A stretch of 20,121 bases of DNA. It comes from a virus (taxonomy: Duplodnaviria > Heunggongvirae > Uroviricota > Caudoviricetes). Under the pieces are notes generated by a model. The model had not been told where the DNA came from. It searched no databases and saw only the letters and a list, made by a program, of their open reading frames with translations. The position numbers and the translations under genes were made by a program. The stretch is from IMG/VR virus record IMGVR_UViG_2778261674_000018, positions 1 through 20,121 of that record; one strand, written 5' to 3'. Numbering within the stretch: position 1 is the stretch's first letter; the number at the start of each line of letters is the position of its first letter. This document shows positions 281 to 16,266 of this stretch, in pieces.

Positions 281-931
281 TTCTATCAGTGCCATTAGCA
301 GGAAGAGATATCACCGGAGTTTAATGTGTGATTTTTTATTTATCGTCGAACCTGGATTGTTTATCATTGTCCTTAACAAGGCTAACGGCTAATAAGATTA
401 TTTCCATCACTTCGTGAGAGCTTCATGCCTTGATTTGATCTCAATTTTCTTTTGCAATGAGACAGGCGCTTCCTGTTGTTATGGTATAGTACCCCGCTAT
501 TGAGCCTCCTGAACAGTGATGCTGAATAACATAACCCAATGATATATCGATAAAATAATCTCTACATTTGAAAATGCACGGTAATTCTGAAATGCAAAAA
601 ATCAACCAAACCAGCGCAATGCCTGAAAAAACTGACGTTCACTGGAGTGGTCGGTTTAGCGTTGCACCAATGCTCGATAGGATGTATCGTTGTTGAAAAA
701 CAAGTAGTTATATACTCTGTGGGAGCCTATTGGGAACCTGTTATTCTTAGAAAGCATCATTTGCTCATCACTTCAATTGACCATGATTAAAGCCAGCTAT
801 AAACTTGACAAACAAGGTAACTGGTTGCTTAGGCCTAAGTGGGCAAACCATAAGAAGCTCATGTTGGTGATGAAGCAACCCATGAAGTATCGAGAATAAT
901 TACAAAGTTCACTATCTTTGAGGTTTCTTAT

Positions 932-1504
932 ATGTTTTGCGAAGAAAAAGTAGCTCAAATGGCTGCATACCTACTTCTTAAGCGAGGTGGGCGCATGGCA
1001 TATCTGAAATTGATGAAGCTGCTCTATCTGTCTAACCGCAAGTCGATTTTGAAGCATGGCAGGATGATCGGCGAAGATAGCCTTTACTCTATGAAATTTG
1101 GTCCGGTCATGTCGAATACGCTGAACTTGATTCGTGGTAAGGCTGAAGGCATTGGTGACTACTGGTACAACTTGATAGAGACGAACGGGCATGATGTGTT
1201 GTTGCGTTCAGATCCGAGGGAAATGGATGCAGACGAGGTCTTTGATGAGTTGAGCCGTGCAGATATCCGGATTTTAGATGAAATCTATTCTCTGTATGGG
1301 CATATGAACCGATTTGATCTCGCAAACATGACGCATTTAGAAAGCGTTTGTCCAGAGTGGCACAATCCTGGCAATTCTCGTAAGCCTATAGACCTGAAAG
1401 AAATGCTGATCAGTGAGGGTAAAAGCGAGGATGAGGCTAATCGTATAATTGGCAAAATGGAAGAATCTCAGAAACTTAAGGAATTTTCTTTGCAATTATC
1501 ATGA
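932..1504 (+). CDS. Panacea/DUF4065-like (SocA/GepA-type) putative antitoxin
   Basis: 190 aa. The N-terminus (AQMAAYLL...YLKLMKLLYL...KFGPVMSN) matches my recollection of the DUF4065 pattern (KLxKLLYxx ... GPV). GAGG sits 8 nt upstream of the ATG. The stop overlaps the next start (ATGA at 1501-1504). AT-rich relative to the phage backbone. Confidence 0.55.
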   Translation: MFCEEKVAQMAAYLLLKRGGRMAYLKLMKLLYLSNRKSILKHGRMIGEDSLYSMKFGPVMSNTLNLIRGKAEGIGDYWYNLIETNGHDVLLRSDPREMDADEVFDELSRADIRILDEIYSLYGHMNRFDLANMTHLESVCPEWHNPGNSRKPIDLKEMLISEGKSEDEANRIIGKMEESQKLKEFSLQLS

Positions 1505-1920
1505 CGGATTATCAGCCATACAGGAAAGGAACTGTGCTTGCCCCAACTGGGCCATGCAATCATCTTCATGTGATTTGTAATGATCCTGTTTATTACCCCG
1601 TTAACGATTGTTATTGTGTTTTAGTTGTTAATATTTCTAGTATCAAGGATGGTGTCCCCCACGATCCGTCTTGCGTCTTGAATTCTGGTGATCATCGCTT
1701 TATCAAGCATCCAAGTTATGTTGTTTACGCTGAAGCTATAATTTGGCGAGTGGATAACATGGTTAGAAAGCAGCGATCGGGTGAGATTTCTGTTCATGAT
1801 GATATGCCAGAAGCTACATTCAATAGAATTCTGGACGGTTTTGATATATCTGATGAAGTTACGCCAAAGAACCTTAAATTTAAAAATAAATATTGCGTAT
1901 CATCTATTGATGATGAGTAA
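1501..1920 (+). CDS. Unknown 139-aa protein, translationally coupled to the Panacea-like gene; putative toxin/effector partner
   Basis: ATGA start/stop overlap with the upstream gene. Very AT-rich. Cys/His-containing N-terminus (PTGPCNHLHVICND); I do not recognise a family. Confidence 0.5.
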   Translation: MTDYQPYRKGTVLAPTGPCNHLHVICNDPVYYPVNDCYCVLVVNISSIKDGVPHDPSCVLNSGDHRFIKHPSYVVYAEAIIWRVDNMVRKQRSGEISVHDDMPEATFNRILDGFDISDEVTPKNLKFKNKYCVSSIDDE

Positions 1921-1959: not shown

Positions 1960-2133
1960 ATGGAAGATCAAAAAGCAACCAAGCCACAGGTTAAGTTCGA
2001 CACAATGAAAGCATTCGCAGGTATGGGGGCTGCTGTTGAAGTTCTGATGAAGGCTGTTCCTAATGCGTTCACTCACGCTACTGTCTCTGGTAAAGAGCAG
2101 CAGGGTAAGCTTCGTCGTCGCAAAGCAGCATGA
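1960..2133 (+). CDS. Small 57-aa hypothetical protein
   Basis: Below the 60-aa cut-off of the ORF track; I translated it by hand (MEDQKATKPQVKFDTMKAFAGMGAAVEVLMKAVPNAFTHATVSGKEQQGKLRRRKAA). GGAG lies 6 nt upstream of the ATG and a strong terminator follows directly. Confidence 0.4.
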   Translation: MEDQKATKPQVKFDTMKAFAGMGAAVEVLMKAVPNAFTHATVSGKEQQGKLRRRKAA

Positions 2134-2152
2134 TCATAGCTGGTGCTTTTTG

Positions 2153-2180
2153 AAAACCCGCCTTCAGGCGGGTTTTTTCT
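2153..2180. terminator. Bidirectional rho-independent terminator between convergent units
   Basis: aaaacccgcc-ttcag-ggcgggtttttt: 6-bp GC stem flanked by an A-run and a T-run, so it is functional in either orientation. It sits between the stop at 2133 (+) and the stop at 2181 (-). Confidence 0.65.
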
Positions 2181-2462
2181 TTAGTGATGTTCTTTGCCCT
2201 TCTGTTTGACTGTTCTGACCTGTTCCCACTCGATACGTCCTTCTTCTCGCCTTTTGTCTATGTATTCCGCAAGATCCTGAATATTGATGCAACGTTTTGC
2301 TTTTTGTGATGTGCCGATGCGATATGTTGGAACGGGCAACTTACAAGCGTTTGCTTTTGCTTCTGCCGTGGCTGGACTCATACCAAAGTACTTTTGGCTA
2401 ACTGCTGAGAGTTCAATGTTTGGGGTATTGAATTCAGCCATCAGTAAAAACAAGGTGTTCAT
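2181..2462 (-). CDS. PrtN-family DNA-binding protein (pyocin-activator-like / excisionase-like)
   Basis: MNTLFLLMAEF...YFGMSPATAEAKANACKLPVPTYRIGTSQKAKRCINIQDLAEYID resembles PrtN-family prophage proteins. Start chosen at the internal ATG preceded by GGAG with a 6-nt spacer; the ORF track starts 9 codons earlier. Confidence 0.6.
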   Translation of the reverse strand: MNTLFLLMAEFNTPNIELSAVSQKYFGMSPATAEAKANACKLPVPTYRIGTSQKAKRCINIQDLAEYIDKRREEGRIEWEQVRTVKQKGKEHH

Positions 2463-2498
2463 AATTTTCTCCATCAAAACCGGCTGCACCCGGGAAAA

Positions 2499-4330: not shown

Positions 4331-5248
4331 TTAAGTTGTTGGATTTTGGCTTTTATCTTCTTTGTAAGAAAGAAGGTCACACATCAAATTAACTACCTTG
4401 CTGAATTGGAAAAGGTCAGTGCCAGTCTGATGACGCCACTGGAATGCTTTATCATCTTCATCATTAAATGTCTGAGATTGAGTATTGATGCGCGAAAAAT
4501 GGAAATTTTCGGTAAGAATGAAGGTCACACCGCAACCGGATAACTCCATTTTATCAGCAGTGAAACTACTACTAAGGCTATCGGCCAGTTCGCTTTGAAT
4601 TGACTCATGCTCAGCTGAGTAGCGAATAATTTCCTTTTGATCTGCGTAGCGTGATAGCTGAATATAATTCCCGACAGTGAATCCTTCAAATGCATTGGCT
4701 GCACCATTGATGTAGTTCTTCAGGCGTGTAGTCAGTCCATTCTTGATATCACTGATGTTGATTGTTTCTGTTTTCACTGAACCGACAACCTTAATCAGCA
4801 TTGCGCATACCATACCGGCTATTATTTTATTGGTTGTGTTGATTACCAATAATTTCTCATCAGTGCTGTACAATGCAAGAATCAGCGTAGACTTAACAAA
4901 TGCCTGTTTGCATAGATCTACTCGTACGTTATCAATAATGGCCAGTCGTTCGGCACGCTTTAATTTATTCCCGGACATATTTTCGATTGTTTGGATTCGA
5001 GAATTAGCTTCTTTCATGACGACATGTCGGGGAATTATTTTCTGATCATGACGGATTACCATTGCGTACCCACCAGATATCGGAGTTACCAGTTCACCAG
5101 TGACAGGATTCTCTACAAAAGAGGACCGTGAAAATTCTGTTTCCCCGATTTCAGAATAAGGGAGTTCGAGAAGATGCCCTTCAATAGCCTGTATACTAGG
5201 TAATGTTGCTCGGTACACAATTGCGTTACGAAATTTTGGTAATTTCAT
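4331..5248 (-). CDS. rdgC: RdgC-like recombination-associated protein
   Basis: MKLPKFRNAIVYRATLP... aligns with the RdgC N-terminus (MLWFKNLMVYRL...); about 306 aa, typical RdgC length. Start at the internal ATG with a GAGGAAAA RBS; the upstream 50 codons of the track ORF are probably not translated. Confidence 0.65.
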   Translation of the reverse strand: MKLPKFRNAIVYRATLPSIQAIEGHLLELPYSEIGETEFSRSSFVENPVTGELVTPISGGYAMVIRHDQKIIPRHVVMKEANSRIQTIENMSGNKLKRAERLAIIDNVRVDLCKQAFVKSTLILALYSTDEKLLVINTTNKIIAGMVCAMLIKVVGSVKTETINISDIKNGLTTRLKNYINGAANAFEGFTVGNYIQLSRYADQKEIIRYSAEHESIQSELADSLSSSFTADKMELSGCGVTFILTENFHFSRINTQSQTFNDEDDKAFQWRHQTGTDLFQFSKVVNLMCDLLSYKEDKSQNPTT

Positions 5249-5569
5249 TCTATTTTCCTCTGCACAAGATATTAGTTTCTCCACAAAACAGAGAAGAACA
5301 CCTGCGGTGGCAGCCGCCCGGATGGATTGGGTTATGAGCCCGTCGTCCGGTGATGCTCTTCTCTGTTTTGTAAAAAGAGCGGTACCAGCCGGAAGCAAGT
5401 GTACAAACTGGTACCGCCAAAGCAGTGGCTGTTGTGGTGACCGGTGCTGATCTCCGGCTTGCGGTTATTTCAGACTCTCACGGGCATTTAATTGCCCCGC
5501 CGAACAGCTCTTTTCCGCAATAGCTGCAATGTCTTTCGCGCATCAGCCTGCGCATTCACCACAACTCTA

Positions 5570-13111: not shown

Positions 13112-13128
13112 TTTTGTGGAGAAAGTTG

Positions 13129-13506
13129 ATGCGTGATATTCAAATGGTTCTGGATCGTTGGGGAGCATGGGCGGCGAGTGATAGTTCAGGAGTAGACTAT
13201 TCTCCTATAGCTGCTGGGTTTAAAGGGCTTCTTCCCTATACAAGCAAAACACGTCAGGCATGTTCAGATAGTGATGCATTAATTATTGAAGGTTGTCTTG
13301 CTCGTCTAAGGCAAAAAAGGCCGGACGAACATTCGCTTCTTGTTGCCCATTACCTATACGGTATCTCTAAAAGAAAGCTCGCCAAGGCTCGTAAAAAGGA
13401 TGAGAAACTAATACGCATTGAGATACAGATGGCTGAGGGGTTTATTGATGGCTGCCTATCGATGCTGGAAATTAGTCTAGAGATGGACCCCGAAATTAAA
13501 GATTGA
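13129..13506 (+). CDS. Q-like late-gene antiterminator (small Phage_antitermQ type)
   Basis: MRDIQMVLDRWGAWAASD...IAAGFKGLLP resembles the short Q proteins of Salmonella/E. coli lambdoid prophages. It is the last early-right gene before the late region. RBS GTGGAGA. Confidence 0.6.
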   Translation: MRDIQMVLDRWGAWAASDSSGVDYSPIAAGFKGLLPYTSKTRQACSDSDALIIEGCLARLRQKRPDEHSLLVAHYLYGISKRKLAKARKKDEKLIRIEIQMAEGFIDGCLSMLEISLEMDPEIKD

Positions 13507-13512
13507 TTATTG

Positions 13513-13537
13513 AAGCCCGATTACTCGGGCTTTTGTT
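13513..13537 (+). terminator. Rho-independent terminator after Q
   Basis: aagcccga-ttac-tcgggctttt; overlaps the stop codon of the convergent gene on the - strand. Confidence 0.55.
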
Positions 13538-14540
13538 CCACATCTCGAACATAGAGAATTACTGCTGACTTAATGTCACCATCGACGTGTTTTGCGTTAA
13601 TGCTCAAATGTACAGGCTTTCTTTCCCACTCAGCTCGCTGCAATGCTTCTTTGTTTCCGGATTCATCAAGGAAAACATCCTGAACTACGCAGGTTAGACG
13701 TTGGTCGGTATCTACGCGTCGGACCTTAACTTTGAAACTCTCTGGGTCAGTATTATTGACTTCTTCAATTCGGTAAATACCATCAATCCTCATTTCTGAT
13801 GAACGTCTACGAGCATTCGTAACCAACTCTTTCGCCATTTCAGAATCAATAGTAACGCCATCAATTTGAGCGTTATCTGAACGCACAAAGGATTTGACCA
13901 TTTGGGTTTTAGCGTCATACGACATACGGTCCATGTTATCGAGAAGTGGTTTTTCCGCAATCATTTCTGAAATAACCCGCAGGCGTTTAGTTTCTTGCTC
14001 ACTCATGATCTGCATAGTCCGGAGATGTTCTTTCTCTCCATCCTTAGCAATTTCTGCAAGGCGAATATCTTTACGGTTGTCCAAGAACCGTTTAAATACT
14101 GTTACTCCGCCCCAGATGACTGCTGCGCCGAGAACAGTAAACATGATCTCAGTTGCGTTCATTTTACCAACAAGTTCCTGTGTGAGTTTGGTTAAAAAGC
14201 CATCAATGTTGATTTCTACTATTGAAGAACCCTGTTCTACCGTAACTTCTATTTCTAGGGCATCAAGTTCTTCTTTGGTCAGTTTGCGGACGTCAGGGAC
14301 ACCGTACTTGGCAAGGGCATATGATTTGTTGATTTGAGCTTGCATTTCAACAAATCCCTTCATAACTGAAGGTGTTAGCGATCTGTTGAATTTTTCACCG
14401 GTTAATCTGATGGTAAGGTTTGGCCATCCGTTGAAACTTAAACTGTCAGGTAAACCATAACCATCAAGATAGCTTTCAAGCAAATCGAAGGCTTGCTGCT
14501 CAGATTCAATGTCTACATGAATCTCATCAAACTTATCCAA
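13521..14540 (-). CDS. Membrane-anchored protein of unknown function (339 aa, one central TM helix)
   Basis: Long ORF, AT-rich, convergent to Q. Hydrophobic segment IMFTVLGAAVIWGGVTVF flanked by charged residues (KMNATE ... KRFLDNRKD). No family recognised. Confidence 0.6.
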   Translation of the reverse strand: MDKFDEIHVDIESEQQAFDLLESYLDGYGLPDSLSFNGWPNLTIRLTGEKFNRSLTPSVMKGFVEMQAQINKSYALAKYGVPDVRKLTKEELDALEIEVTVEQGSSIVEINIDGFLTKLTQELVGKMNATEIMFTVLGAAVIWGGVTVFKRFLDNRKDIRLAEIAKDGEKEHLRTMQIMSEQETKRLRVISEMIAEKPLLDNMDRMSYDAKTQMVKSFVRSDNAQIDGVTIDSEMAKELVTNARRRSSEMRIDGIYRIEEVNNTDPESFKVKVRRVDTDQRLTCVVQDVFLDESGNKEALQRAEWERKPVHLSINAKHVDGDIKSAVILYVRDVEQKPE

Positions 14541-15213: not shown

Positions 15214-16266
15214 ATGAAAAATACTGTAAAAATAAACAGTGTTGATTTAATCAACGCTGATTGCCTGCATTTTATTCAGTCCCTGCCTGATGATTCCATT
15301 GACCTGATTGTTACCGATCCGCCGTACTTCAAGGTGAAACCCAACGGTTGGGACAATCAGTGGAAAGGGGACGAAGATTACCTTAAGTGGCTGGACCACT
15401 GTCTGGCCCAGTTCTGGCGGGTGTTAAAACCTGCCGGAAGCCTTTACCTGTTCTGTGGGCATCGCCTGGCATCTGATATTGAGATCATGATGCGTGAACG
15501 TTTCAACGTGCTTAACCATATCATCTGGGCGAAGCCGTCCGGACGTTGGAATGGGTGTAATAAAGAAAGTCTGCGCGCATATTTTCCTGCCACAGAGCGC
15601 GTTCTGTTTGCTGAACATTACCAGGGGCCATATCGTGGCAAAAGTGACGGCTATGCGGCAAAAGAAAGGGAACTCAAACAGCACATAATGGCACCGCTGA
15701 TATCGTATTTCAGGGATGCTCGTGCCGAACTGGGTATAACGGCAAAACAAATTGCCGAAGCCACAGGTAAGAAAAATATGGTTTCCCACTGGTTTGGTGC
15801 CAGTCAGTGGCAGTTGCCGAATGAGGCTGACTATCGGAAGTTACAGGCACTGTTTTCCCGTATAGCGGCAGAGAAGTTTCAGGAACAACAACTGGAACAA
15901 CCACACCACCAGCTGGTGGCATCTTATGATTCACTAAATCGCAAATATTCTGAATTGCTGGATGAGTTTAAATCTCTCCGGCGCTATTTCTCCGTATCAG
16001 TCTCCGTGCCTTATACCGATGTCTGGATGCATAAACCCGTTCAGTTCTACCCGGGTAAACATCCGTGTGAGAAACCTGCGGATATGCTCCGGCAAATAAT
16101 CAATGCCAGTAGTCGACCTGGTGATCTGGTTGCTGATTTTTTTATGGGATCCGGTTCCACAATAAAAGCAGCAATGGCGCTGGGGCGTCGGGCCTTAGGT
16201 GTTGAGCTTGAGTCAGAGCGGTTTAACCAGACAGTGAAAGAGATAAACGAGCTGGTGGGGAAATAA
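15214..16266 (+). CDS. DNA methyltransferase, beta-class amino-MTase (N6-A or N4-C)
   Basis: Motif IV DPPY (VTDPPYF) lies N-terminal to motif I FxGxGS (FFMGSGST), the circular permutation typical of beta-class MTases. Confidence 0.75.
   Translation: MKNTVKINSVDLINADCLHFIQSLPDDSIDLIVTDPPYFKVKPNGWDNQWKGDEDYLKWLDHCLAQFWRVLKPAGSLYLFCGHRLASDIEIMMRERFNVLNHIIWAKPSGRWNGCNKESLRAYFPATERVLFAEHYQGPYRGKSDGYAAKERELKQHIMAPLISYFRDARAELGITAKQIAEATGKKNMVSHWFGASQWQLPNEADYRKLQALFSRIAAEKFQEQQLEQPHHQLVASYDSLNRKYSELLDEFKSLRRYFSVSVSVPYTDVWMHKPVQFYPGKHPCEKPADMLRQIINASSRPGDLVADFFMGSGSTIKAAMALGRRALGVELESERFNQTVKEINELVGK

Follow-up and report, generated by a model that had tools for sequence, protein, structure and literature searches.

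The window analyzed here, a 20,121-nucleotide stretch of tailed-phage DNA (Caudoviricetes; positions 1 to 20,121 of IMG/VR record IMGVR_UViG_2778261674_000018), carries two overlapping genes, panA and panT, that we consider likely to constitute a type II toxin–antitoxin (TA) module with a translation-inhibiting toxin, PanT. The pair adds a further member to a PanAT subclass that is already known; it is not an undescribed toxin and does not constitute a new category. The gene structure, the Panacea domain of PanA, the predicted MazF fold of PanT, the conservation of the pair, its homology to a catalogued toxin cluster (T6), and its cargo position in a prophage all come from the present analysis. 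Toxicity, neutralization, complex formation, and translation inhibition are drawn from the literature on a homologue. The elements of the pair are as follows.

932..1504, plus strand: panA, encoding a 190-residue antitoxin that comprises a stand-alone Panacea/DUF4065 domain (residues 27–137) and a C-terminal extension of ~50 residues.
1501..1920, plus strand: panT, encoding a 139-residue toxin with a predicted MazF/PemK-type barrel plus two extra C-terminal helices.
1501..1504, plus strand: ATGA stop/start overlap, read from the sequence, a likely site of translational coupling from panA to panT.

The neighborhoods of DUF4065 genes were surveyed by Kurata et al. (2022; PNAS, PMC8832971), who named the partners PanA and PanT. 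Toxin cluster T6 in their Dataset S1 has the order antitoxin then toxin, with overlaps that are mostly −4 or −1 (PMC8832971). It includes the PanT of Pseudomonas moraviensis (WP_083201923.1), which is toxic, is neutralized by its PanA, and co-purifies with it (PMC8832971). This toxin selectively blocks incorporation of 35S-methionine, that is, it inhibits translation; it has no CDD hit and is MazF-like by HHpred (PMC8832971). The same cluster lists Pantoea septica LMG 5345 (−4) and Yersiniaceae bacterium 2016Iso4 (−1) (PMC8832971). Two of the loci that we recovered, from Pantoea septica LMG 5345 (L008, −4) and from 2016-Iso4 (L007, −1), represent the same genomes and the same spacings as these T6 rows, and their PanT relatives are 55%–56% identical to PanT of the window.

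The Pseudomonas phage Sirocco offers a bridge to the validated pair. Its PanA starts with (V)IFSEQKVAQ, the ten-residue stretch put back on the P. moraviensis PanA by Kurata et al.; the two Sirocco genes also meet in a −1 overlap, as in P. moraviensis. Compared with the window, the Sirocco proteins share 46% identity in PanA (E-value 1e-41) and 48% in PanT (E-value 3e-39). By sequence homology to the listed T6 loci, the window pair is a member of the catalogued PanT cluster T6, which has one validated representative; toxicity, neutralization by PanA, and formation of a PanA:PanT complex are reported for this P. moraviensis cluster-mate and would be expected of the window pair. In the Sirocco record itself (OR683410; our L030), the panA gene (929–1486) is annotated as hypothetical only, and the panT gene (1486–1884, 132 residues) is unannotated, with a 44-residue antisense coding sequence at 1741–1875 listed instead.

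A first-pass annotation of the window, made from its letters without database searches, had recognized a Panacea/DUF4065 pattern in the first protein, and the profile search bears this out. PanA matches PF13274 (SocA_Panacea) over residues 27–137 (67.9 bits, cut-off 25.7; E-value 1.8e-18). It also matches phrog_1281 (E-value 3.5e-26), and its RefSeq name is “Panacea domain-containing protein” (WP_000458583.1). No N-terminal accessory domain is present in PanA, and a structure model made from its single sequence is of low confidence (predicted local distance difference test [pLDDT] 42). It has been reported that stand-alone Panacea domains can neutralize directly, and that in other PanAs it is the appended elements that neutralize, with the Panacea domain proposed as a sensor (Ernits et al. 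2023, PMC10440598).

The same annotation stated that the second protein matches no known toxin family, and proposed on that ground that it may be an undescribed toxin. The first statement is true of the sequence libraries: PanT has no match in Pfam, NCBIfam, or PADLOC, nor in the PDB when searched either as a single sequence or as a profile, and its only family assignment is phrog_19071 (function not assigned). The proposal did not hold up. An AlphaFold2 model of PanT built from 30 homologues (pLDDT 93, predicted template modeling score 0.86) was compared with the PDB using Foldseek, and the top 50 matches were all MazF, 49 of them with a probability of at least 0.98 (template modeling scores 0.50–0.66, normalized to the target). 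Against phage models, eight of the nine best matches were named PemK-like or endoribonuclease, or were unnamed. PanT is thus predicted to have the MazF/PemK fold, a MazF/CcdB-type SH3-like barrel, and because all sequence and profile searches were null, it is the predicted structure that carries this assignment. Because the family is listed as T6 and one of its members has been validated, the partner of PanA is not undescribed.

The module is conserved well beyond E. coli. In a survey in which one genome per species was scanned, we recovered 26 loci with a PanT relative from Gamma-, Alpha-, and Betaproteobacteria. Wherever upstream DNA was available (24/24 loci), the gene immediately before the PanT relative, and on its strand, encodes a PanA homologue. 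The spacing between the two genes is −4 in 11 of 22 loci, −1 or 0 in two, and +3 to +27 in the rest. Pairwise identities of PanA and PanT correlate (r = 0.91 over 253 pairs, not corrected for phylogeny), which shows that panA and panT have diverged in parallel and have not been reshuffled. The reading of the pair as a conserved PanA/PanT-type module, made initially from two genes in one sequence, is well supported by these loci. The wider PanT family comprises 2735 representatives of 50%-identity clusters at an E-value of ≤1e-3 (947 at ≤1e-10), and it has no Pfam model. Nine phage records hold a PanT relative, including Yersinia, Vibrio, Klebsiella, and Pseudomonas phages. E. coli genomes also hold at least two further PanT variants, one of 150 residues at 73% identity and one of 133 residues at ~52%.

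Both genes are real and under strong purifying selection, because differences from their orthologues concentrate on third codon positions. For this test we used the orthologues from Kosakonia and Pluralibacter (L003 and L004), which have ~77% DNA identity. Substitutions at codon positions 1/2/3 number 32/13/94 and 25/12/87 for panA, and 15/8/76 and 16/10/68 for panT. Against the same orthologues, nonsynonymous divergence (dN) is 0.08–0.11 and synonymous divergence (dS) is saturated. The two open reading frames and their 4-nt ATGA overlap had been read correctly at the outset, with both sets of coordinates exact. The description of the pair as markedly AT-rich stands in part: the AT-richness is real, but its degree is only moderate. 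The guanine-plus-cytosine (GC) fraction is 0.413 for the pair (panA 0.433, panT 0.383) versus 0.489 for the remaining prophage in the window, so that panA–panT ranks among the lowest 7% when set against windows of 989 bp.

The start of panT deserves comment. RefSeq, which annotates the gene as “hypothetical protein,” uses the PGAP start at GTG 1534 (128 residues, WP_014640052.1). We rejected this start, which drops 11 residues that are conserved in the family. The Shine-Dalgarno-like AGGAAAGGA ahead of GTG 1534 lies inside the codons of the conserved YRKGT. On comparison of the homologues, ATG 1501 is the true start, because the N-terminus MTxYxPYRKGT is conserved (it is kept across 30 homologues) and because 11 of 22 related loci show the same stop/start overlap. 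There is no Shine-Dalgarno sequence at normal distance before 1501, an AAGGA lying 18 nt upstream, and GAGG is found 8 nt ahead of the panA ATG.

The genes lie at the edge of a lambdoid prophage. Positions 1–210 of the window encode the C-terminus of a DUF2713 protein. Homology to the host chromosome, as placed by comparison with E. coli genomes without the insertion, stops at position 677; 4348 E. coli genomes match up to this point, mostly within a gene annotated as dusA. Lambdoid prophage DNA extends from 678 onward. Because host dusA homology ends at 677, panA is the first prophage gene, its start lying 254 bp from the host junction. The flanking features are listed below.

568..677, plus strand: 5′ end of host dusA (MHGNSEMQKINQTS...SVAPMLD), cut by the prophage integration and pointing toward panA–panT.
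678..931, plus strand: prophage-specific leader that separates panA from the host junction, GC 0.37, the presumed promoter/operator region.
1960..2133, plus strand: orf57 (57 residues; phrog_2741, E-value 5.8e-35), a backbone gene between panT and the terminator, not part of the TA pair.
2152..2177, no strand assigned: GC-rich hairpin flanked by an A-run and a T-run, with an 11-pair stem that includes six GC pairs, followed by a T-tract (terminator scan).
2181..2489, minus strand: xis (PrtN family).

The distal, opposite-orientation position that the first-pass annotation assigned to the pair is upheld by this layout and can be sharpened, in that the pair is oriented head-on toward xis and the leftward early operon. 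The hairpin at 2152..2177 is likely a bidirectional terminator between the rightward panA–panT–orf57 and the leftward xis. A promoter scan gave one weak sigma-70-like site in the leader, at 777–805 (TTGACC-17-TAAACT), with hits no more frequent than in shuffled sequence or by chance. The terminator scan gave no terminator-like site between 600 and 932. Because the start of dusA points into panA–panT with no such site between them, read-through from the host dusA promoter may contribute to transcription of the pair. There is no Pfam or PADLOC match for orf57, which accompanies xis in 614 E. coli records as well as in phage mEp460, independently of panAT.

Comparison of related phages indicates that the pair occupies a cargo slot. 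In the circular phage Lys8385Vzw, the gene order is int (minus), attachment site (att), panA (plus), panT (plus), orf57 (plus), and xis (minus). Phage mEp460 (NC_019716; our L029) has the same int/att ... orf57–xis backbone without panA–panT. Because mEp460 carries a different gene there, the att-proximal slot is a variable cargo position, and it may hold other accessory genes of unrecognized type. The suggestion of a typical moron position is thus supported in the form of prophage cargo in a variable slot. The mEp460 gene in question is F853_gp23 (177 residues; 2284–2817, equivalent to ~932–1920 of the window), and it has no Pfam or PADLOC match. The full region is present in 205 of 5426 complete E. 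coli genomes (~4%), and panA–panT is also found in phages Lys8385Vzw and SKA5.

In the mechanism that we propose, PanT would stop growth by inhibiting translation, probably via RNA cleavage on a MazF scaffold, and PanA would most likely hold PanT inactive by direct binding. Through the ATGA overlap, synthesis of PanT would be tied to that of PanA, so that, under this proposal, toxin would not appear in the absence of its antitoxin. In a lysogen, expression of the pair would not depend on the lytic genes. If PanA were lost or displaced, for example by infection with another phage or when the prophage is lost, the cell would be arrested by free PanT, and this arrest could serve as abortive-infection defense or as prophage stabilization. 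The RNase chemistry, the catalytic residues, the translational coupling, and the biological role in this scheme are what we infer.

Several observations weigh against this reading and must be set beside the evidence above. The link from the window PanT to the P. moraviensis PanT runs via the clustering of the original authors and the Sirocco bridge. PF02452 is not matched by PanT at an E-value of ≤1, and alignment of the PanT family profile with E. coli MazF using hhalign gave a probability of only 0.2%. No convincing promoter was found by the promoter scan. Neither PanA nor PanT matches a model in PADLOC-DB 2.0 at an E-value of ≤1, and we found no published phage-defense test for the PanT family. 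In the original survey, only nine of 25 candidate PanAT pairs were validated, and a candidate of cluster T1 borne by an E. coli phage was recorded as “not Toxic” (Kurata et al. 2022, PMC8832971). The remaining point concerns chemistry, and is best considered residue by residue.

The residues identical in all of 34 PanT sequences are L13, G17, H21, L22, H23, D28, P29, H65, S72, Y76, and S117, and C26, D55, and C58 come close to invariance. The family lacks a conserved arginine. The catalytic pair of MazF in E. coli is R29/T52. In a weak local alignment to MazF (score 27, non-significant), H21 of PanT falls at H28, L22 at R29, and S46/S47 at T52/T53. Because the family has no conserved arginine and L22 takes the position of MazF R29 in this tentative register, the chemistry of PanT may differ from that of MazF. 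A more specific proposal, which we regard as somewhat improbable in its entirety, is that PanT may be a distinct enzyme on the MazF scaffold that uses the invariant His21, His23, and His65 (with D28, S72, and Y76) instead of Arg/Thr and has its own RNA target, with the pair acting as an abortive-infection defense in which the Panacea domain senses an invader trigger and releases PanT. We also considered a structural zinc site formed by H21, H23, C26, C58, and H65; this candidate is weakened, in that C26 is Met in Sirocco and one homologue has Val in place of C58.

With regard to role rather than mechanism, the module may serve mainly for prophage addiction or stabilization and not for abortive-infection defense, a possibility to which we give real but minority weight. 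Since the pair sits beside att and the int/xis region, it would be lost together with the prophage, and both the lack of PADLOC matches and, as far as we found, the lack of published defense results for the PanT family lean the same way. On the other side, the slot is one of variable cargo, as is usual for accessory genes of prophages; phage defense has been shown for several type II TA systems; and a role as trigger sensor has been proposed for Panacea (PMC10440598). Addiction and defense are not mutually exclusive. We would put the prospect of a demonstrated anti-phage defense role at no more than about one in three.

A deeper objection is that panA–panT may form no functional TA system in E. 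coli, the partner being nontoxic and the pairing serving some other phage function. The low validation rate and the nontoxic T1 candidate noted above favor this, as does the suggestion that Panacea may be a sensor and not a neutralizer (Ernits et al. 2023, PMC10440598). Yet the P. moraviensis toxin of the same cluster is both toxic and neutralized, the antitoxin-then-toxin order with a stop/start overlap is strictly kept across three proteobacterial classes, both genes are under strong purifying selection, and the predicted fold is that of a classical toxin. On balance, we consider a non-TA function unlikely. Least probable of all, in our view, is that PanT is a CcdB-like DNA gyrase poison or some other non-RNase effector on the same barrel.

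Under the preferred reading, that of a type II module with a translation-inhibiting PanT, the closest known system is the T6 pair of P. moraviensis. Like it, the window pair has a stand-alone Panacea antitoxin without an N-terminal domain, and the antitoxin-then-toxin order with a stop/start overlap. The two differ in setting, as the P. moraviensis pair carries the label “NotPhage,” whereas the window pair is on a lambdoid prophage that integrates in E. coli dusA. MazE–MazF and PemI–PemK (Kid–Kis) have no sequence or profile similarity to the window pair. Compared with MazF/PemK, PanT adds two C-terminal helices (residues 104–131 of the model) and a long loop at residues 48–71, and its invariant set is different (HLHxxCxDP...H65, without a conserved Arg). 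The antitoxin also differs, as MazE/PemI is of AbrB/RHH type and the window antitoxin is a Panacea protein, not a cognate MazE/PemI.

In the type VI system SocA–SocB of Caulobacter, the antitoxin shares PF13274 with PanA. However, PanA scores only 13.5 bits against the SocA equivalog NF047745 of NCBIfam (cut-off 190), and its partner is a protein of predicted MazF fold, not SocB, which places the pair outside SocAB. It should be noted that the PanAs assayed by Kurata et al. bind directly, with no ClpXP-mediated degradation of the toxin as in SocA (PMC8832971). The type III toxins ToxN, AbiQ, and CptN have much weaker structural scores to PanT, and they are neutralized by RNA repeats, whereas the window pair has an adjacent gene for a protein antitoxin.

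With this assignment, two genes present in ~4% of complete E. coli genomes gain a name and a testable function. The PanT family is large (the 2735 clusters given above), is without a Pfam model, and has an apparently non-canonical active site. A PanAT pair borne by a coliphage, in its native E. coli host, would be a convenient system in which to ask whether Panacea senses phage infection. The same E. coli system would suit the question of how a toxin with the shape of MazF can act when the catalytic residues of MazF are missing.

The remainder of the window is occupied by other prophage genes. These include genes for an exonuclease, an RdgC-like protein, a cI-type repressor, Rha, and replication initiation (DnaD/HTH_36-type), and further genes for KilA-N, DUF968, antiterminator Q, and a DNA methylase. 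The RdgC-family protein (355 residues; PF04381, E-value 2.4e-30) is encoded in the leftward early operon at 4331..5398 on the minus strand, and its counterpart in a related prophage is annotated as “YfdQ family protein.” An AT-rich open reading frame of 339 residues (13521..14540, minus strand; GC ~0.42) lies antisense between Q (13114..13506) and the type II DNA methylase gene (15214..16266). It has no Pfam or PADLOC match and, in this classic moron position, is a second orphan cargo candidate.
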